A stretch of DNA of 64,000 bases, taken from Clostridium sp. UBA701 (lineage in GTDB: Bacteria > Bacillota > Clostridia > Clostridiales > Clostridiaceae). Positions 46,128 through 55,523 of the stretch are shown here, one piece after another (position 1 is the first letter of the stretch; the number at the start of each line of letters is the position of its first letter). The DNA lies in NCBI GenBank assembly GCA_002298125.1, contig DBMJ01000016.1:1-64000 (forward strand). Direction: 5' to 3'. The notes under the pieces were generated by a model. It was not told where the DNA came from. It searched no databases and saw nothing but the letters and a program-made list of their open reading frames with translations. The translations under genes were made by a program, and so were the position numbers.

Positions 46128-49067
46128 ATGGATAAGATAATATATTTTTTGCCACTGTATTCAGATAATAGGGAGCAGCTTATAGATAAGTGCTGCAAGC
46201 TTCAGAATAAAGGACAGAATTTTTTATACATACTGCCCTCAAGAGGGGCTTTGTCCTCAGTAAGACAGAGCTTTTTAGATAAAAGAGGGGGACTTATTAA
46301 CAGCTCCATTATAATGTTTGATGAGCTAGAGAGACTTTTATGCAGGGAAGTCCTAGCTGAGAGCAGGATAATAAATTCCAGGGTGAAGGAGGAGCTTCTT
46401 CAAGAGAGTGTTGAAAGAAATAGAGACAAGCTCTTATATTTTAAAAAACTAAGCAGCAGTATGGGCTTTATAAGAGAGCTGTCCTCTCTTATCTCTCGCA
46501 TGAAAAGGGAGTGCAAAACTTGGGAGGAGCTTATTATTCTCTCAAGCAGCTATGCCAATTCTCCTCTTAGTAAAAAGCTTCAGGACATAGCAATGCTTTA
46601 TAGGGCTTATGAGGATATAAAAAAAGCTAAGAGACTTTACGATAGCGAAGATATTTCTAAGTTTGCAATAGAGGAGGCAGCCGCAAATCCTATATGGCAA
46701 AGCATAGATACTATAGTTATAGATGGCTTTATAAACATAGACAGGGTAAATAAAGAGCTTATAAAAACCATAGCTAAGCAGGATAGGGTTAGTATATACA
46801 TAAACCTTCCTTATAGAAATGAGCTTCTAGAGCCTTTTTTAAATAGTGAAATTAATGAGGAGCTATTATCTTTAGGCTTTCAGCTTGTAACTAATGAAAC
46901 ATCTCAGCATAAGGCAGCAGCCGCCTTAAAGGAGCTTTCTCTGGGGCTCTATAGTGGAGAAAAATGCAACTCCTCCTGTGATGGTATAGTGCTTAGAAGC
47001 TTTCCCTGTGTGGAAGCTGAGGTGAGAGAGGCTGCGCGCTGCATAAAGAAGAGTCTTATGGAGGGTATGGAACCATCTCATATAGCTCTATATGTAAATA
47101 ATCTAGACCTATATGAAAAATCCATAACCTCAATATTTAGTGAATATAATATACCTCATAATTTAGGTCAGCGGGAAAAGCTTATAAATGTGCGTTTCGT
47201 AAGAGAGCTTATAACTGACTGCACCTGGCTCCAAGAGGAGGACACTATAGAAAAGCATCTCTTAAAGCTTGAGGATAGGCTTAGGGAGGAAAGAGAAAAA
47301 TTAAATAATGCTGCAGAAGCAATGCTTTTGGGAAATTTGACTAACACTGAAGCCATTTACCTAAGAGGGTATAAGGGGCTGCAAGGCATAATTGCTCTTT
47401 GGAGGAGTCAAAATTACCTACTGCAGCAAGGAAATAAAATTATTTCCCGGGAAAAGTTTGTAGAACAGATGAGGCAGTGGGTGGAGGAGGCTACAGTTAC
47501 CCTTAAAAAAGGCTTTAATACTGGAGTAAATATTTTAAATACAGATCTTGCTAAGGGAATATATTTTAAGGAAGTGTATATTCTTGGCCTAAATGAGGGA
47601 GAGGTGCCTAAGGCTGCTGAAAAGTCTGTGATATTTAATGGTGAAGAGAAGAGAAGACTTATGGAGGAGGGCTTTACGCTAAGAAGCGGAAGCTATGAAC
47701 AGTATAGAGAAAAGATAAGATTCAATCTAGCATTAGCTTCAGCTGAAGAAAGGCTCTACCTAAGCTGTAGAAATGCAGGAGAAAAGGGAGAGTTTGCAAT
47801 ACCCTCCTCTTTTATGGAGGAGGTATGCTATCTAACCTCAAGGTCAATTGTAAAATATTCTATGAAGGACAGGTTTTATAAGAATTTTTCAGAGCTAATG
47901 AGCAGGAGAGAGCTTGAAGAAAGCAGTCTAGTAAGCTACTGTGAAGCTCTTTATGAGGGCAGTATTACTGTAGAGGATCTAAGCTGTGGACTTTCAAGCC
48001 TATGCTCAAAGGGAGACATCTCCTCCACTCTTGTGGAATATCACAGGGAGTATGAGGAGGACTTTGACAGCTATGAGGGAATGGTGGGAGGAGCTTTTCT
48101 ACCTCAGGTGAGCAGCTTTTTCACCTATAGCGGCAGCAGCTTCAACGGCTATTTTCAATGTCCCTTTAGATATATGCTGGACAATATTTTTAAGCTACAG
48201 GAGTTTGAAGAAGAGGAGGAGGAGTTCTCCGCCATAGAGCTTGGACAACTATACCATAGGGTACTTGCAGCCTATTACAAAGAGGCAGACTATTGGCATA
48301 GTGTAAATGAGAAGCTCCTAAGTGAAAAATATGATGAGGAATACAGCAAGCTAAGACCCTTAGAGCTGCCAAAGCTTGTACTTGATACCTTAAGGGAAAA
48401 ATATTATAAAATCCTTAAGGACTTTATAGCTGCAGACCTAACTAGGCTTTCGGGCTATGAAAAGCTTACAGGAAGGGTACTAAGACCCTATAGGCTTGAG
48501 TGGTCTCTTCAAAATTATGACTTTTTAGGCATTCCCTTAAAAGGTATAGTGGATAGAGTGGATTTAGAATATGAGAAGGTAGAGGGAGGTTTAAAGCCTA
48601 CAGGAGCTTATGTCATCTATGATTATAAGAGGAAGTCGAGCTCCTCCTCCCCTAAAAATCTCAAGGATATAGTGTCAGGCAGGGATTGTCAGCTTCCCAT
48701 TTACTACTACCTGGCAGAAGAGCAGCTTAAAAACATTCTTAAGCTAGAGAATATAAGGTGCATGGGGCTTTTATATATGTATGTGGAAAATTTGAATAAG
48801 ACTGCCCCCAAGGCTTCAGGGATACTTTTAAATGAAGATAAAAAGGCCTTAGGCTATTCAAGAAGTGAAGGGATAAGTACACCAGCCTTTAAGGTAGTAG
48901 TGCAGCAGGTTCAGGATTTGGTTAAAGAGGCTCTTACCAAAATTAAAAGCGGAAGCTTTAACTATAAGCCATACTGTTATCACAAAGAGAGCAGCTTTGC
49001 CTATCCATGCAGATATGGAAATCTATGCCGCTATAGCAAAAATAAAATACGAAGGGGAGGGATTTAA
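46128..49067 (+). CDS. rexB: helicase-nuclease subunit B, RexB/AddB type (inactive helicase-like N-terminus, C-terminal RecB-type nuclease with Fe-S Cys staple)
   Basis: 979 aa; N-terminus LYILPSRGALSS resembles RexB (no Walker A); nuclease motif GIVDRVD..YVIYDYK; Cys pattern C(FQCPF)...YCYHKESSFAYPCRYGNLC. Confidence 0.8.
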   Translation: MDKIIYFLPLYSDNREQLIDKCCKLQNKGQNFLYILPSRGALSSVRQSFLDKRGGLINSSIIMFDELERLLCREVLAESRIINSRVKEELLQESVERNRDKLLYFKKLSSSMGFIRELSSLISRMKRECKTWEELIILSSSYANSPLSKKLQDIAMLYRAYEDIKKAKRLYDSEDISKFAIEEAAANPIWQSIDTIVIDGFINIDRVNKELIKTIAKQDRVSIYINLPYRNELLEPFLNSEINEELLSLGFQLVTNETSQHKAAAALKELSLGLYSGEKCNSSCDGIVLRSFPCVEAEVREAARCIKKSLMEGMEPSHIALYVNNLDLYEKSITSIFSEYNIPHNLGQREKLINVRFVRELITDCTWLQEEDTIEKHLLKLEDRLREEREKLNNAAEAMLLGNLTNTEAIYLRGYKGLQGIIALWRSQNYLLQQGNKIISREKFVEQMRQWVEEATVTLKKGFNTGVNILNTDLAKGIYFKEVYILGLNEGEVPKAAEKSVIFNGEEKRRLMEEGFTLRSGSYEQYREKIRFNLALASAEERLYLSCRNAGEKGEFAIPSSFMEEVCYLTSRSIVKYSMKDRFYKNFSELMSRRELEESSLVSYCEALYEGSITVEDLSCGLSSLCSKGDISSTLVEYHREYEEDFDSYEGMVGGAFLPQVSSFFTYSGSSFNGYFQCPFRYMLDNIFKLQEFEEEEEEFSAIELGQLYHRVLAAYYKEADYWHSVNEKLLSEKYDEEYSKLRPLELPKLVLDTLREKYYKILKDFIAADLTRLSGYEKLTGRVLRPYRLEWSLQNYDFLGIPLKGIVDRVDLEYEKVEGGLKPTGAYVIYDYKRKSSSSSPKNLKDIVSGRDCQLPIYYYLAEEQLKNILKLENIRCMGLLYMYVENLNKTAPKASGILLNEDKKALGYSRSEGISTPAFKVVVQQVQDLVKEALTKIKSGSFNYKPYCYHKESSFAYPCRYGNLCRYSKNKIRRGGI

Positions 49068-49068
49068 T

Positions 49069-52000
49069 ATGGCCTTTCCATTAAATGATGAACAGCTTCA
49101 GGCACTAAATATAGAAGAAAACATTTCACTATCAGCAGGAGCAGGTTCAGGGAAAACCAGGGTGCTTACAGAGAGATATATAAAGCTTCTAGAGGAGGAC
49201 AGTGAGGCTGATATTCTAAACATAGTGGCCATAACCTTCACCAATAAGGCTGCCCTAGAGATGAAGGACAGGGTGAGAAAGGCTATCCTCGTAAAGCTTG
49301 AGGAGTCTAAGAGTGAGGAGAGAAAGCTTTGGCAGCAAAGACTAGATGCGCTTAGTGAAGCACATATTAATACCATCCACGGGTTCTGTGGAGAAATAAT
49401 AAGAGAGCAGGCAGAAGAGCTAAACATAAGCCCAAGCTACTCTATTATAGATGCTGTAGAAAAGGAGCTGCTGCTTAGAGAAATCTTCACTAAGGTGGTA
49501 GCGGAAAGTCTTATTAAGGAGGACTTTAAAGAGGCTGTGGCAGAAATGGTGGAGCTCTATGGAGGAGAGTACCTTCAAAGGAAGGGCAGCTGTAATATTT
49601 ATAAAGATCTTCATAGGCTTCGGGAAAAGCTTTTAGAGAGAGGTCAGCTTAACAAAGAGCTTTTAAAAGCAGTTCAGCCTGAAAGCATGGAGCATTTTGT
49701 AATTTATATTCTGCTTAAGGTAGAGGAGCGCTATACAAAGAGCAAGAGAGAAAAAGACCTAATGGACTTTAATGATATGGAGCTTTTGTGTTATTCTGCT
49801 ATGCAGATAAAGGACATTAAAGAATACTATAAAAATAGATATAAAAGATTTCTAGTAGATGAATTTCAGGATACCAATGAACTTCAAAAGAAGATATTAT
49901 TTTCCTTTATTGAGGATGAGGATGGAATGCCTATGGATAAACGCCTCTTTGTAGTAGGAGATGTAAAGCAGTCCATATACCGCTTCCGTGGAGCAGATAT
50001 GCAGGTGTTTAATAGGGTAAGGGCAGAGCTTCCTGAAAACAGCAGAAAAAGTCTTCATATCTGCTACAGATGCCACCCCTCTATTGTAAAGGGAGTAAAC
50101 CAAATATTTAAAAAGCTTATGGCAGGCTATGAAGAACTTCAATCTGAAAGCGTGGAAGAGGATAAAAGAATTACCCTGCTCACCTATGAGGAGGAAGCAG
50201 AGGAAAAAGCAGATATCTACAGTGGCATAAAGGAGCTATATAAAACAGAGGATGAAGAGCATATGGAGGAGCTTAAGCTCAAGCTTAAGACCTTTTTAGA
50301 GGATATTAAAAATACAAAGCCCACAGAAGCTAAGGAAGGAGAGGCAGTGTTAAAGGCTGTCTATCATCTTAGAAATTGCGGCTTAGCCTATAGAGATATG
50401 GCGGTGCTTGTACGAAGCCGCTCCTCCCTGGCTGTACTGGAGGAGACTTTTATCAAGTATAAAATACCTTACTGTATCATAGGAGGAAAGGGCTTTTACA
50501 ATAAACAGGAGGTAATAGATATATTAAATCTATATAAGCTATCCATAGGGGATACTATTTCTAACGCAGAGCTTATTAGTGTGCTTAGAAGCCCCTTGTT
50601 TTCCATATCTGATGCAGCCCTTCTAAGAGGCAGGGTAGAGGCCATAGAACAGAAGGATATGGAGTTTTTAGAGGCTTTGGATTTAGCCTCGGAAACCCTT
50701 GAAGAAGAGAAGGAAAAGATTAATGCTGCCATAGGGGTCATTAGAGATTTACGCAGGGAGAGTGCAAATTGCAGTACTGTGCAGCTTCTAAAGTATATCT
50801 ATGATAAGACAGGAGTATGGAATAGATATATCTCACTAGAGCAGGGACTTCAGAAATACAGAAATCTAGAACAGCTATTACAGTGTGCAGAGGAATTTGA
50901 TAATAGGAAGCTGTTTTCACCTCAGGAGTTTATGGAATATATGACTCTTATGGCGGAGTACAGCAAGGAAGATGGAGAAGCTGCCCTAGACACAGAGGAT
51001 TCAGAGGCAATTAAGGTAATGACCATTCATGCCTCAAAGGGGTTGGAGTTTAAGGGAGTTATAATGCCCTCTCTAAACAAGAATTTACTGTATAATATAA
51101 ACAATGGGAAAAACAATTTTCTATACCAGGAGGATAATATAATAGCCTTTGACCGTTCAGCTAAGCAGGATGAAGCTTCTGACTTTCAGACTGGCAAGGC
51201 TCAAGAGGTTGAAAAGGAACTGCAGGAAGCAGTAAGAGTTTTTTATGTGGCTGTAACTCGTGCCATAGAACAGGTGGTGCTCATAGCACAGAGAGATGAA
51301 AAGTTGGAGGAGAAGCTTCAAAATGAAGCCTCCCTTAAGCCTGAGGACATCTATGGAAGCTACTATGCACAGCTTCTTTATGCCATTAATAGTGCTGGGG
51401 ATATTCCTGGTTTTCAAAGCCTAAGCATAGATGAGGTAGAGCTTAGGGAAGAAGCAGCTAAGGAGTACTATTTGCCTCAGGAGGATATTATAGTGCCAGA
51501 AGGAGTTGATTATAACTGTGAGGTGGTGCCACGTATTTTTTCCTCTGCCAGCAGCTATATGAGCTATAAACGCTGCCCTCTGGAGTATTATCTTAGTCGT
51601 GAATTGGCCTTTGCCCTGGACTTTTTAGAGGACAACAATGGTGAAGAGGAAAAGGAAGCTATAGAGGAGAGAGAACAGTCTTATGAGGGACTTACGGCAA
51701 TTGAGAAGGGACACATTATCCACAGTGTGTTAGAGCAGCTTGCAGTTAAGCCTGAATTAAGGGAGGAGGAGCTTCAGGAGTTTATTATAAGAGCTTCAGA
51801 GGAGGAGCTTGGTTATGAAAGCTATAATGAAGATATAGCCTCTGAAATAAAGCCCTATATTGATAGCTTTGTGAAGCTTGAAAAAAGCAGCAGGTTTAGT
51901 GCATTTACTCCCCTTTCAATCTTGTGTGAGGCTCAGTATACCTTTGCTCCACTTGAGGATAGGAAGCTAATATTAACTGGTGCCATAGATCGCCTTAGGC

Positions 52001-52326
52001 TTTATGAAATGGATGGAAAACTTGTGGCGGTTATTACGGATTATAAGAGTAACAACCTAAGAGATAGAGAGGAAGCAGAAATCACTGCTAAAAAATATCT
52101 TCCACAGATGCTCTTATACGGCCTTGCAGTTAAGACACTGTTTTCACATAAGGGAAGAAGTGTGGATGAGATTATTCTGCAGCTTTATTTCTTGAAGCCT
52201 GGAGAGGAAATTAAATTGAATTTTGATGAAAAAGAAGCACTGGTGCTGGTTGATGAGATGGATAGGATATTTAAGTCCATGGCGTTAAATAAGATAGAGG
52301 ATTTACAAGTGACAAGTGACAAGTGA
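49069..52326 (+). CDS. rexA: helicase-nuclease subunit A, RexA/AddA type (UvrD-like SF1 helicase + C-terminal PD-(D/E)xK nuclease)
   Basis: Start at ATG 49069 with GGGGAGGG RBS (ORF track extends to 48997); Walker A AGAGSGKTRVL, UvrD motifs, C-terminal GAIDRL..ITDYK nuclease motif; the stop codon lies inside the heptamer repeat. Confidence 0.85.
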   Translation: MAFPLNDEQLQALNIEENISLSAGAGSGKTRVLTERYIKLLEEDSEADILNIVAITFTNKAALEMKDRVRKAILVKLEESKSEERKLWQQRLDALSEAHINTIHGFCGEIIREQAEELNISPSYSIIDAVEKELLLREIFTKVVAESLIKEDFKEAVAEMVELYGGEYLQRKGSCNIYKDLHRLREKLLERGQLNKELLKAVQPESMEHFVIYILLKVEERYTKSKREKDLMDFNDMELLCYSAMQIKDIKEYYKNRYKRFLVDEFQDTNELQKKILFSFIEDEDGMPMDKRLFVVGDVKQSIYRFRGADMQVFNRVRAELPENSRKSLHICYRCHPSIVKGVNQIFKKLMAGYEELQSESVEEDKRITLLTYEEEAEEKADIYSGIKELYKTEDEEHMEELKLKLKTFLEDIKNTKPTEAKEGEAVLKAVYHLRNCGLAYRDMAVLVRSRSSLAVLEETFIKYKIPYCIIGGKGFYNKQEVIDILNLYKLSIGDTISNAELISVLRSPLFSISDAALLRGRVEAIEQKDMEFLEALDLASETLEEEKEKINAAIGVIRDLRRESANCSTVQLLKYIYDKTGVWNRYISLEQGLQKYRNLEQLLQCAEEFDNRKLFSPQEFMEYMTLMAEYSKEDGEAALDTEDSEAIKVMTIHASKGLEFKGVIMPSLNKNLLYNINNGKNNFLYQEDNIIAFDRSAKQDEASDFQTGKAQEVEKELQEAVRVFYVAVTRAIEQVVLIAQRDEKLEEKLQNEASLKPEDIYGSYYAQLLYAINSAGDIPGFQSLSIDEVELREEAAKEYYLPQEDIIVPEGVDYNCEVVPRIFSSASSYMSYKRCPLEYYLSRELAFALDFLEDNNGEEEKEAIEEREQSYEGLTAIEKGHIIHSVLEQLAVKPELREEELQEFIIRASEEELGYESYNEDIASEIKPYIDSFVKLEKSSRFSAFTPLSILCEAQYTFAPLEDRKLILTGAIDRLRLYEMDGKLVAVITDYKSNNLRDREEAEITAKKYLPQMLLYGLAVKTLFSHKGRSVDEIILQLYFLKPGEEIKLNFDEKEALVLVDEMDRIFKSMALNKIEDLQVTSDK

Positions 52327-52838
52327 CAAGTGGCAAGTGGCAAGTGGCAAGTGACAAGTGGCAAGTGACAAGGGAGAAGGGACAAGTTACAAGTGACAAG
52401 TTAAAAGTGAAGAAGTGACAAGTTACAAGTGAAGAGGGAAGAGGGACAAGGGACAAGTGAGAAAGTGACAAGTGGGAAAGTGACAAGTGACAAGTTACAA
52501 GTGAAGAAGTGAAGAAGTGGAGAAGTGGCAAGTGACAAGTGACAAGTGAAGAGTGAAGAGTGAAGAAGTAAGAAGTTATGAAGTGACAAGTGACAAGTGA
52601 CAAGTGACAAGTGACAAGTTATGAAGTGACAAGTGACAAGTGACAAGTGGCAAGTGACAAGTGAGAAAGTGACAAGTGACAAGTGACAAGTGGCAAGTTG
52701 CAAGTTGCAAGTTAAAAGTGAAGAAGTGAAGAAGTGAAGAAGTGAAGAAGTAAGAAGTAAGAGGTAAGAAGGAAGAGGGAAAAGTTAAGAGGGAAAAGTT
52801 AAGAGGGAAAAGTTAATAGTTAAAAGTGACAAGTTGTG
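52305..52838. repeat. ~530-bp microsatellite of heptamer/octamer units (GACAAGT, GGCAAGT, GAAGAAGT, GAAGAGT, GGGAAAAGTTAAGAG x3), ~75 units
   Basis: seen directly: long runs gacaagtgacaagtgacaagt..., gaagaagtgaagaagt...; plus strand is almost devoid of C; minus strand open in all frames. Confidence 0.9.
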
Positions 52839-53153
52839 GGTTGTGCAAATAATTTTGTGTATTCTATTTCTATTGGCAAATAATTAGGATATCAAATTGT
52901 TTGACCGTAATGTTAAATTTTGTCGATAAATCTTTAGCTGCATCATTAATATTATAGTAGATTATTCTTACTGCTTAAGTTAATATACAACATCTTTACC
53001 ATTAACAGGATAGGCCAATGCTGAGGAGCAACCTGAGCGGTTACTGGAGTTCTCTGAATAGGAACGGATGGTCTTTTGATCATCCTTTTCTCGTTCCTGG
53101 GAGAACTAAAGCGATAAACCTCTGGGGTTTGGGGACAGAGTCCCCAAGTTATG

Positions 53154-53472
53154 CCTACTTTCTTAAGATATCTTCAAATAGGATATTGAGTTGACTTACT
53201 ACAAGATCCCAGTTTGAACACACTCTACTCCACTTGTTGCTAATCTTTTCAGTAGATAGATATAGCATCTTCATAAGACTCTCGTCATTAGGGAATATAA
53301 GCTTTGTCTTAGTAACCTTTCTAAATTGGCTATTAAGGCCTTCTATAGCATTTGTGGTATTATCCCGATATCGGTATAGTTATTTTTTTGGCATTAGAGG
53401 TATACATAATCGTACGAATATATTCACAATGGAGAATACTACCATAGAATTCTTGAGGAAAAGGTTTAGTAT
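53154..53472 (-). pseudogene. IS256-family transposase, 3'-terminal remnant (~105 codons, one frameshift)
   Basis: Minus-strand translation gives EYIRTIMYTSNAKK / YRYRDNTTNAIEGLNSQFRKVTKTKLIFPNDESLMKMLYLSTEKISNKWSRVCSNWDLVVSQLNILFEDILRK*, matching the conserved IS256 C-terminus (IYTTNAIE.LN..R...K....FP...L.K.LYL.....KW....W) as recalled; no N-terminal DDE region, no inverted repeats. Confidence 0.7.
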
Positions 53473-53482
53473 AAAGTAAAGG

Positions 53483-53592
53483 GCCTGTTTAGAGGATTTG
53501 CTCGCTAAACAGGCTCTGTTCTTTAACAGGCCATGCTCTCTAAACAAGCTCTGCACTCTAAACAAGCTCTGCTCTCTAAACAGGCACTGCTA
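53483..53592. repeat. 3' UTR element: three perfect + two degenerate 18-bp direct repeats (CTCTAAACAAGCTCTGCW) and a 10-bp-stem hairpin (GCCTGTTTAG/CTAAACAGGC)
   Basis: seen directly at 53538-53591 (3x18 bp) and 53483-53514 (hairpin); lies immediately 3' of the minus-strand small-protein gene stop, so the hairpin probably acts as its terminator. Confidence 0.6.
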
Positions 53593-53990
53593 ATACAAGG
53601 GGGCTTTGCGGTTTAATTCCATTTGATTTTTTCTGTGCTCTTGTTTTTCCTTGGTGCTTTCAAGGGTTAATTCGTCCATTCGGGAGGCATTGTGATCTAG
53701 GTAGTTGTTAGCGTAGGTGTAATTTTTCAGCAGGTTATCATTTTCATCCACCTGCTCATGGATACCATAGGCGATGATGTTTTTTAGGTTTGCAATTTCA
53801 GCTTTTCTCTCCTCTTGAATTTTTAAGGTATGCTTTACGTCATCAAGAGTAGATTTTGCCAGATTTTCTTCTAGATGTTTTTCTGTACGAGTATATTTTT
53901 CCACTACATCGATAAGCTGCTCAATTCTTCTAGCATTGGATTTTTTATGCTCCTTATAAGAATCAGGCTGCTCTTTGTCACCATTCATAT
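53590..53990 (-). CDS. small highly charged coiled-coil protein (possible spore-associated/Tlp-like small protein)
   Basis: Start chosen at ATG 53990 (MNGDKEQPDSYKEHKK...), with AGGAGG RBS 8 nt upstream; the ORF-track extension to 54099 is unsupported; Lys/Glu-rich, no family confidently recognised. Confidence 0.45.
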
Positions 53991-54055
53991 AAATCCTCCT
54001 TTGACCCACTGTACTGCTTAGATATATGAAAAAAAGTGAAGAATGAAAATAAATA

Positions 54056-54100
54056 GAGGGCTCACTTATATTTTTAGCATAAGGAGCCCTAAAATACATG
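54056..54100 (-). terminator. probable nagA terminator hairpin (AGGGCTC...GAGCCCT)
   Basis: 7-bp stem with A/T flanks downstream of nagA and of the 15-bp repeats. Confidence 0.4.
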
Positions 54101-54120
54101 GGAAATATTGTTTTTTCAAA

Positions 54121-54255
54121 TTATAAATTATAGCTTTATAAACTATATCTTTATAAACTGTTGCTTTACAAACTGTTGCTTTACAAACTATAGCTTTATA
54201 AGCTGTTGCTTTATAAACTATAACTTTATAAGCTTTCCATTTACAATAACAAGCT
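54121..54255. repeat. nine tandem copies of a 15-bp AT-rich unit (TTATAAACTATAGCT consensus)
   Basis: seen directly: ttataaattatagct ttataaactatatct ttataaactgttgct ttacaaactgttgct ttacaaactatagct ttataagctgttgct ttataaactataact ttataagctttccat ttacaataacaagct; overlaps last ~12 codons of nagA. Confidence 0.85.
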
Positions 54256-55351
54256 TAATGTTTATATCCTCATCAAAGAGCACTAAGTCTGCATCATAAC
54301 CCTCTGCTATCAGTCCCTTTTGGTTTTCTACTCCACAGTGTACTGCAGCATTGTAGGTAGCCATTTTAACCACCTCATAAAGAGGATAATTGGTATTTTT
54401 GTATACGTTGGAGATAGCTTTATCTAAAGTGAGAATGGAGCCTGCCAGTGAACCAGTAGCAATTCTTGCAGCACCTTCCGTTACAAATACGTCTTGACCG
54501 CCAAGGGAGTATTTGCCCTCACCTAAGGTACATGCCATCATGGCATCTGTAACCAATATGGTCTTATCAAGGCCTTTTTGCTTAAAGGCTACTCTAAGAG
54601 ATGGGTATGCTATATGAATGCCGTCTGCAATGGTCTCTGTGGTTATATCACTATCAAATATTGCACCTACCACTCCAGGCTTTCTATGATGAAGAGGAGT
54701 CATGGCATTAAATAAATGAGTGGAGTGGCTAACTCCCTTTGCTATTGCAGAAGAGGCTTCTTCGTAGGTAGCATTTGTATGTCCCATGGATACCACTACA
54801 CCAAGGGAATGGGCATATTCAATGAGTTCAAGTGCACCCTCTACCTCTGGAGCTAGGGTTATACAGCTAATATCCTCTATATGCTCCTTGGCAATATAGT
54901 CAAAGGTCTCCTTTGAGGGCTTTTCTACGTATTTAGGGTTTTGTGCACCTATCATATTGGGACTAATAAAGGGGCCTTCAAGGTGAAGTCCCAATATTTG
55001 AGCTCCTTCTGTACCCACCTTCTTAGCTTCTGCTGCTGCTTCTACAGAATTTTTAATATCCTCTAAGGCTACCGTCATAGTAGTTGGAAGAAAGGAAGTG
55101 GTACCGTGCTTTACAATGGCCTTTGAAATTTCATTTAATGCTTCATAGGTACCATCCATGGTATCATATCCTGCGGCTCCATGAATATGCACATCTATAA
55201 AGCCAGGAGAGAGATAATTACCTTGGCCGTCAATTATTTCTTCACCATATAAGTCTGTGGGATTAAGCTCTACTATCTTTCCATTTCTTACTCTAAGAGC
55301 TCCTTCTTCTATTCCATCCTTTAAAATCAGTTTACAATTAGTTATTATCAT
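54218..55351 (-). CDS. nagA: N-acetylglucosamine-6-phosphate deacetylase
   Basis: 377 aa; GFIDVHIHGAAG metal-binding motif and overall NagA pattern. Confidence 0.85.
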   Translation of the reverse strand: MIITNCKLILKDGIEEGALRVRNGKIVELNPTDLYGEEIIDGQGNYLSPGFIDVHIHGAAGYDTMDGTYEALNEISKAIVKHGTTSFLPTTMTVALEDIKNSVEAAAEAKKVGTEGAQILGLHLEGPFISPNMIGAQNPKYVEKPSKETFDYIAKEHIEDISCITLAPEVEGALELIEYAHSLGVVVSMGHTNATYEEASSAIAKGVSHSTHLFNAMTPLHHRKPGVVGAIFDSDITTETIADGIHIAYPSLRVAFKQKGLDKTILVTDAMMACTLGEGKYSLGGQDVFVTEGAARIATGSLAGSILTLDKAISNVYKNTNYPLYEVVKMATYNAAVHCGVENQKGLIAEGYDADLVLFDEDINIKLVIVNGKLIKL

Positions 55352-55523
55352 AATATGTGGGAAAAACCCGCACCTCCTTTAATTAAACCTGATGTCTAAT
55401 TAAATTATACTCCTATTTTTATATAGATGTCTAGACCAGTTGTTTACAATAAAAATGCAAAGTGTTATAATTATTTTAAAATAATATGTAATTTGCACCG
55501 GTATATTGCTGGGAGGGAAGATT

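Follow-up and report, generated by a model that had tools for sequence, protein, structure and literature searches.

The 64,000-nt stretch of Clostridium sp. UBA701 analysed here (contig DBMJ01000016.1, positions 1 to 64,000; hereafter the window) contains the right-hand end of a dead insertion sequence (IS) of the IS256 family. In the non-coding tail of this fragment lies one copy of a conserved gene for a structured RNA, a gene that recurs in unrelated IS families. The RNA is apparently a widespread and undescribed structured class, as judged from sequence comparison. The reading preferred here, at a probability of roughly 0.55, is that of a dead IS256 right end with a conserved IS-borne RNA that would act in trans as a passenger or accessory of its carriers. 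The last step taken by itself, a diffusible trans-acting accessory or passenger RNA, is more tentative and is put at somewhat under even odds. The transposase remnant alone shows merely that an IS was once present; it is ordinary, and the RNA copy in its tail is the only unusual thing at the locus.

The IS256-family remnant and its right end

The original prediction described the minus strand at 53154-53472 as the 3' remnant of an IS256-family transposase gene with an internal frameshift, and as far as the nature of the fragment is concerned it was right. In one minus-strand frame, 53425-53390 translates as EYIRTIMYTSNA (containing EYIRTIMYTSNAKK), and in another, 53379-53158 translates as LYRYRDNTTNAIEGLNSQFRKVTKTKLIFPNDESLMKMLYLSTEKISNKWSRVCSNWDLVVSQLNILFEDILRK, with a TAG stop codon at 53155-53157. 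The long segment matches Pfam family PF00872 (Transposase_mut, Mutator family) with E 4.8e-9 and the joined segments with E 1.3e-9, in both cases at profile positions 328-378/379, the extreme C-terminus. The IS256 assignment had been made to depend on a significant protein match, and a search of 5.8 billion proteins returns 87 relatives, all PF00872 and the closest 70-83% identical. By tblastn, identity to the C-terminal part of a near-full-length relative is 83%. Homology can be demonstrated for about 75-80 residues (53425-53158), rather than for the 105 or so conserved residues first proposed; the stretch upstream of 53425, FPQEFYGSILHC, is unalignable with relatives, and weak DNA similarity reaches about 53440, with none seen beyond.

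The C-terminal coding segment, TTNAIEGLNSQFRK...FEDILRK with its stop codon (53155-53360, minus strand), is recovered by translation, Pfam, alignment to three relatives (L003, L001 and L002) and tblastn, and the upstream segment EYIRTIMY(TSNA), in the other frame (53404-53425, minus strand), by a second tblastn alignment (53425-53390) and by DNA alignment. Between them lies a frame-shifting 43-bp insertion (53361-53403), a gap in all three aligned relatives, which accounts for the change of frame as well as for the repeated YT(T/S)NA that the original prediction had correctly noticed. The insertion resembles a footprint of repair or excision more than the product of simple slippage. It is made up of an imperfect 13-nt duplication, in which ATACCTCTAATGC copies the adjacent ATACCACAAATGC, and near-palindromic filler, TATACCGATATCGGGATA, with the direct duplication flanking the near-palindrome. 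The C-terminus of the relatives is K-E-A-stop, and therefore the ancestral stop codon was at 53149-53151; the TAG of the window is a change from GAA, two codons early. With its frameshift, its premature stop and its missing N-terminal part of about 340 residues, the gene is dead. The DDE (Asp-Asp-Glu) catalytic region was thought to be gone, and both of its aspartates are indeed lost, but the NAIEGLN...R signature survives, which we take to be the IS256 segment bearing the catalytic glutamate. The whole part of the element to the left of the remnant, with its left end and both catalytic aspartates, has been lost by deletion, and there is no second copy of the transposase segment in the window.

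Degraded copies of this IS256 clade are very common: the 87 database relatives are all short (71-153 aa, many of them exactly 141 aa from the same internal Met, MKYIPYKDRK) and deletion derivatives are also seen at the DNA level: L001 (3774-4426) has residues 1-51 joined to 238-end, and L002 has only the C-terminal third of the gene. The closest transposase gene of near full length, that of L003 (509-1721), is itself split into overlapping open reading frames (ORFs) of 306 and 106 aa.

The boundaries of 53154-53472 were misplaced at both sides. DNA homology with L003, a near-full-length relative on a Joint Genome Institute metagenome contig, and with L004 and L005 runs 316 bp beyond the stop codon, to 52839, and at one and the same point, after ...GAATACACAAAATTATTTACACAGCC, these three relatives cease to resemble the window and one another. 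This common end of homology marks the right terminal inverted repeat (IRR; 52839-52864, minus strand, GAATACACAAAATTATTTGCACAACC in minus-strand text, outermost base at about 52839), and the 316 bp from the stop codon to this terminus (52839-53154, minus strand) are the non-coding right end of the IS. Identity over the aligned stretch of this tail is 81-83% with L003 and L004 and 76% with L005, and a clade-conserved box, TTTATCGACAAAA, is found at 52918-52930. Homologues of the IRR pair with a left inverted repeat (IRL) upstream of the transposase gene in L003 (arms 412-429 and 2006-2023) and in L050 (arms 457-474 and 2057-2074), the arms being 18 nt long, 94% complementary and about 1.58 kb apart, and each IRL/IRR pair encloses the transposase gene and the RNA gene together. 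The claim that the terminal inverted repeats are gone is thus correct for the left repeat, which is absent from the 64-kb window, but not for the right one. The surviving element runs from about 53425-53440 down to 52839 and is the right-hand 600 bp or so of a dead IS256-family IS.

The remnant resembles the IS256 family in its PF00872 C-terminal signature and in its terminal repeat, which bears the ...ACACAAAAT... motif. The prototype IS256 is about 1.3 kb long with short non-coding ends. The relatives, in contrast to the prototype, measure about 1.62 kb and have a non-coding right end of about 310 bp, and their extra length is the RNA gene. In L003, an inverted copy of the terminal sequence stands directly outside the right end (arms 2010-2027 and 2081-2098, 100% complementary), with another end-like sequence about 160 bp farther out (region 2079-2262), suggesting an adjacent derivative of the same IS that resembles a miniature inverted-repeat transposable element.

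Conservation and fold of the RNA

In a four-way alignment of the window, L003, L004 and L005, a block of about 50 nt in the tail is invariant, whereas the coding sequence is 76-83% identical, so that the RNA module is more conserved than the adjoining transposase gene. The 20-mer CGCTCAGGTTGCTCCTCAGC from this block has 50 exact matches among one-genome-per-species contigs, against about one expected by chance. The matches span at least eight phyla, with hosts in Clostridia, Tissierellaceae, Desulfotomaculum, Planctomycetota (Pirellulales, Phycisphaerae and Brocadiia), Thermoanaerobaculia, Anaerolineales, Nitrospirota, Leptospira and Kiritimatiellota, and around every one of them the same layout is found with differing flank sequences. 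Related copies are also present in Acidobacteriota, and the hosts as a whole range from AT-rich Clostridia to GC-rich Planctomycetes. Among the cultured carriers are Clostridium hydrogenum CUEA01, with three copies (L008, L046 and L049), C. homopropionicum DSM 5847, Anaerovirgula multivorans SCA and Roseimaritima sediminicola JC651. As core positions 1-20 served as the search bait, they are invariant by construction in this first set. A second bait that leaves the core free (GAGGTTTATCGC, a gap of 85-115 nt, GCCCTATCCT) gave at least 120 matches in metagenomes, 80 of which were taken as loci; among these the core does vary, with compensatory changes.

The RNA is about 160-190 nt long and is read opposite to the transposase strand of the window. 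A 9-10-bp outer stem closes an arm, AGGAUAGGGC-AA-[YGCU-GAGG-AGCR]-ACCYGAGCG, with the pairings GGG/CCY and YGCU/AGCR. On the 3' side of the arm follow a long hairpin showing no sequence relationship from one clade to another, then the single-stranded box AAAGCGAUAAACCUC and a GC-rich final hairpin. All nine pairs of the outer stem change on both sides in an ungapped, core-anchored alignment (n = 40); 84.7% of its cells are paired, compared with 54% when shuffled and 30-45% with a slid partner, and its covariation score is reached by none of 500 shuffles. For the internal hairpin (n = 116), pair 10-21 is T-A in 63 copies and C-G in 52, with one non-pair, and pair 13-18 is T-A in 99, A-T in 16 and G-C in one. 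The long hairpin segment has a median z of -3.5 relative to shuffles. Of 46 genome copies, 38 have the box, which was not used as bait, with at most two mismatches and at a distance of 71-115 nt from the core.

A covariance model seeded with 13 clostridial IS256 copies gives full-length matches in all of the diverse loci (45-177 bits). Across an alignment of 87 sequences, the whole structure has 93.7% of its cells paired (66% shuffled, 36-51% slid), a percentage that is inflated because this alignment was fitted to the model, a problem from which the anchored analyses of 40 and 116 copies are free. Changes on both sides are seen in 44 of the 49 pairs, and there are compensatory changes in every helix. 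Tentatively, a further closing stem joins the 5' end of the RNA to the AAAGCGAUAA box; inspection by eye shows it in several clades, in differing registers and with partial overlap of the outer stem. Long-range CCUGAG/CUCAGG pairing between the upstream box region and the core was unconvincing (T-A 23, C-G 22, C.A 21, T.G 9) and was rejected.

In the window, the model (13 other copies, with the window copy excluded) finds one full-length match in the 64 kb, with 142.9 bits and E of about 1e-38, at 52993-53148 on the plus strand, the strand opposite to the transposase. From the family fold, the outer stem is formed by 52999-53006 with 53040-53047, the long hairpin lies at 53061-53097 and the final hairpin, GGGGACAGAGTCCCC, at 53131-53145; family conservation places the 33-nt core, AGGATAGGCCAATGCTGAGGAGCAACCTGAGCG, which holds the hairpin TGCT-GAGG-AGCA, at 53007-53039 and the conserved box, AAAGCGATAAACCTC, at 53108-53122. 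The core pattern has a single match in the window, with one mismatch, where none is expected. A promoter scan places a -10-like hexamer, TAATAT, before the RNA gene (52981-52986), also on the plus strand. Several features of this copy are damaged. Its score is below those of all 13 seed copies (153.5-176.7 bits), the core reads GGC for GGG (53015), with the loss of a pair that 81 of 84 sequences have as G-C, a G.A mismatch interrupts the outer stem, there is an extra AG, and the best promoter match, TAGATT-17-TAATAT, is weak at 7/12. Because of the weak promoter and the several broken pairs, the window copy is probably a decaying relic alongside its IS. A protein-coding explanation of the core was discarded: the 43-aa ORF at 52952-53083 is not conserved (L003 is without the ATG), and none of the three codon positions varies in the core across phyla.

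The damage in the window copy (core substitution, stem mismatches and 7/12 promoter) and the dead transposase gene beside it would also fit a locus with nothing functional in it, that is, decaying IS debris whose tail resembles others through recent horizontal spread of one IS. This is very improbable, since the module is conserved beyond the adjoining transposase gene and occurs with unrelated transposases in GC-rich as well as AT-rich hosts, and since its stems differ in sequence yet stay complementary, which recent spread could not produce.

Predicted transcribed strand and promoter

The transcribed strand is indicated by wobble pairs and, decisively, by a promoter. Reading the outer stem on the transposase strand gives 24 A.C cells (G.U on the other strand) against 11 G.U. 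The long hairpin is more stable on the RNA strand in 31 of 39 copies, with 87 wobble pairs compared with 40, and pair 23-50 of the GGG/CCY helix is G.U in 41 of 84 sequences. Upstream of the core, TAnnnT hexamers peak at 16-17 and 21-22 nt among 109 distinct copies, and 40 of these have TTGACA-N16-18-TATAAT at nine or more of the 12 positions in a fixed location, as in TTGACA-17-TACAAT (L061) and TTGACT-16-TATAAT (L018). The same match is found in 3.7% of shuffles, in 8/109 copies when the search window is shifted by 28 nt and in 2/109 on the opposite strand. From this promoter, transcription is predicted to begin at the 5' strand of the outer stem. The decisive argument on strand is this promoter of sigma-70 type, with its fixed distance, and the consensus matches strongly support the RNA as a predicted independent transcript. 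The alternative that the module is read in sense, as the 3' untranslated region (UTR) of the transposase messenger RNA (mRNA), was dropped on the G.U/A.C counts, the arrangement in IS30-like elements and the promoter analysis.

Host elements and arrangements

Neighbouring genes were typed by Pfam and counted by tblastn over 133 loci, of which 94 could be classified. The counts are those among the matches listed, and the family frequencies are not representative: IS256 with 28 loci (PF00872), a DUF1670 type with 21 (two DUF1670 genes, PF07900 alone, E 1e-40 and 1e-54), IS3 (rve, HTH_21) and IS30-like (HTH_38) with 18 each, IS21 with six (IstB, PF01695), IS110 with two (PF01548/PF02371) and IS5 with one (DDE_Tnp_1). 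For IS5, the one locus could represent a nested insertion. The RNA gene thus lies within about 50-140 bp of an end of elements from six or seven unrelated families, in three arrangements. With IS256, IS3, IS21, IS110 and IS5, it stands between the last gene and the right end, reads inward and is convergent with the transposase; there are 55 such loci, and the RNA starts 100-140 bp inside the right end. IS30-like elements have, in order, the terminus, about 125 nt, the promoter, the RNA, about 60 nt and the Shine-Dalgarno sequence (SD) with the ATG, so that the RNA reads toward the gene. In the DUF1670 type, the RNA gene comes after the second gene, shares its strand and is read out of the element, stopping about 50 nt short of the right end.

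The DUF1670-type unit is 1.92 kb long, is bounded by 19-bp inverted repeats (CTGACATATGTCCCACCGG...) and contains two tandem PF07900 genes plus the RNA gene; examples are L051 (4150-6069), L101, L075 and 18 other loci, with hosts in Planctomycetota and Acidobacteriota. Pfam analysis of the neighbouring genes found no recognisable transposase in it, and full-text searches found no literature on DUF1670.

Across all of these elements, the RNA gene is always sub-terminal, and its orientation to the transposase or to the terminus is not fixed. A rule that the core side faces the nearest IS terminus holds for 73 of 75 loci with recognised transposases, and was abandoned as it is contradicted by the 21 DUF1670-type elements. 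In the plasmid collection, there is no match to the window tail or to an intact copy, and viral contigs have two matches only. Some loci carry paired RNA gene copies, in tandem in L072 (1926-2102 and 2286-2454) and inverted in L017 (6351-6461 and 6643-6788).

These arrangements bear on whether the RNA is a cis regulator of its own transposase, antisense to the 3' end or 3' UTR of the mRNA in IS256, IS3, IS21 and IS110 and a 5' leader (attenuator or riboswitch-like) in IS30-like elements. The 55 convergent loci, with RNA starts inside the right end, have the geometry for the antisense role, and in the clostridial IS256 clade the outer helix and UUUGUUUAA lie over the transposase stop codon as a terminator-like helix. 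In the IS30-like elements, the RNA is located between a good promoter (TTGACA-17-TACAAT in L074 and L061, TTGAAC-17-TAAAAT in L121) and SD/ATG, with a U-rich run after the last hairpin, and conserved loops with covarying stems are typical of leaders that sense a ligand or factor. However, this leader layout of promoter, RNA, hairpin with U-rich run and SD/ATG is limited to the 18 IS30-like loci, one module would need opposite logics in different families, and in the DUF1670 type the RNA comes after the genes and points outward. Antisense control of a simple kind would not require sequence conservation across phyla, and there is no unusual complementarity to the transposase start, duplex energies between the RNA and its own transposase start region being as in shuffles (median z about 0). 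Control in cis is considered unlikely.

IS3, IS21, IS30, IS110 and IS256 are classical families that transpose via replicated circular or tandem intermediates. That these five host families are the classical circle-forming ones, and that the module is always sub-terminal, could point to a DNA-level structure or a primer RNA in copy-out-paste-in transposition, for instance in single-strand initiation, primosome assembly or R-loop priming. The transcript has G-tracts (GGGGUUUGGGG), and the mixed evidence on strand asymmetry would be expected if both strands or the DNA itself matter. On the other hand, the fixed-distance promoter is a sign of an RNA product, conserved positions such as pair 23-50 often have G.U-type pairs, and the orientation to the nearest terminus varies, being mostly inward and in the DUF1670 type outward. 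This role is accordingly regarded as quite improbable.

Comparison with known systems

Rfam 15, HEARO included, has no match with E of 1 or less in 51500-55500 of the window on either strand, nor any with E of 0.1 or less in eight intact copies from different IS families. ARAGORN finds no transfer RNA or transfer-messenger RNA, and full-text literature searches retrieved no description of the RNA. The abundant mobile motif MRSC-65-2 differs from it, being a single stem with UYCCGG repeats (PMC11109978).

Like RNA-OUT of IS10 and art200 of IS200, the IS-borne RNA is a small RNA inside an IS with its own promoter, mostly opposite to the transposase strand. Each of the known IS antisense RNAs belongs to one IS and overlaps the 5' end and ribosome-binding site of its transposase mRNA. 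In contrast, the IS-borne RNA is encoded past the 3' end of the transposase gene, its conserved fold is complex, and unrelated IS families have it in common. The bridge RNA of IS110 and the seekRNA of IS1111 are likewise structured RNAs of about 150-200 nt in a long non-coding IS end, with support from covariation. Bridge and seek RNAs are tied to a DEDD recombinase, and their loops pair with target and donor DNA. The IS-borne RNA is instead found with DDE (IS256, IS3, IS21 and IS30-like), DEDD (IS110) and DUF1670 elements, IS110 accounting for 2 of 94 loci, and no loops complementary to target or donor are seen in it, no search having been aimed at them. PMC11208160 takes a similar analytical approach.

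The omega RNA of TnpB and IscB (reRNA, HEARO; IS200/IS605 and IS607) is also a structured RNA at a transposon end, and the RNA of the DUF1670 type, reading outward about 50 nt from the terminus, has the geometry by which omega RNA takes its guide from the flank. The difference is that no TnpB or IscB is adjacent to the IS-borne RNA, its neighbours being other transposases or DUF1670 genes, and that it reads inward in 73 loci. Lastly, passenger genes of transporter ISs (tISs) resemble it as an extra gene with its own promoter between the transposase and the IS end, dispensable for the chemistry of transposition. Known tIS passengers are protein-coding and element-specific. The IS-borne RNA, by contrast, is one non-coding gene recurring in many IS families and phyla.

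Possible role of the RNA

To our knowledge, the known IS-encoded RNAs (antisense, bridge/seek and omega) are each tied to one transposase family. An RNA shared by unrelated families implies either that it is of use to ISs in general or that it rides ISs as vehicles, together with a conserved cellular partner. A trans-acting RNA is favoured over any one cis mechanism because of the three arrangements relative to transposase genes, and the near-invariant loops across phyla suggest that the partner is conserved in the cell. On this proposal, the RNA would be transcribed from its own sigma-70-type promoter near the IS end and, as a diffusible passenger or accessory of the IS, would engage a conserved host component.

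Several observations weigh against this proposal, besides the inflated pairing percentage of the 87-sequence alignment. An IS256 sub-clade (L011, L029, L038 and L054) folds better on the transposase strand, and the 4-bp internal hairpin has more G.U on that strand (9 versus 3). The promoter is predicted from consensus matches, and the idea that intrinsic termination generally follows the last hairpin had to be given up, a U-run being present in 12 of 94 copies only. The association with IS5 is one locus and that with IS110 two. Action in trans is read from arrangement only; the IS30-like RNA occupies the place of a 5' leader, and the 55 convergent loci also allow roles in cis.

The accessory could also be a modular one, exchanged horizontally among ISs, that is directly involved in transposition or in its control with mechanistically unrelated transposase families, which is considered unlikely. 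It might then be a sensor or leader for a universal signal, a primer or R-loop former in copy-out, or a decoy for a host factor that restrains ISs, and in the two-gene DUF1670 elements it might be the RNA component on which a new kind of mobile element depends.

If the RNA is confirmed, it would represent a new class of bacterial structured RNA, offer a handle on host-IS interactions and flag DUF1670 proteins as components of a mobile element. Long non-coding IS ends, even in dead fragments, can hold RNA genes that can be annotated.

Neighbourhood in the window

On the low-coordinate side, a heptanucleotide microsatellite of about 58 units (ACAAGTG and variants; 52305-52835, Tandem Repeats Finder), with sub-arrays of AAGTGAAG, GAAGAGG and AAAAGTT, starts within the last codons of the AddA-like ORF (end at 52326) and stops 3 nt from the IS terminus; the GC skew of this region is +0.48. 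On the other side, a 10-bp hairpin (GCCTGTTTAG...CTAAACAGGC) followed by a T-rich run lies at 53483-53514 on the minus strand, about 45-60 nt from the 5' truncation point of the IS. It arises from an 18-bp tandem repeat (TGCTCTCTAAACAGGCTC, 5.2 units, 53499-53591), whose last unit is inverted, at the 3' end of a small ORF (53590-53988), which has no Pfam match and of which the hairpin is the likely terminator. The rearrangement hotspot that the original prediction suggested for this junction would be read from adjacency only. Farther on, a 15-bp repeat array (TTATAAACTATAGCT, 7.4 copies, 54121-54231) is present between the small ORF and nagA. The wider neighbours of the remnant are a helicase-nuclease of AddA type (48997-52326; UvrD and PD-(D/E)XK domains) and NagA. 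Three different short tandem arrays are therefore found within 2 kb.

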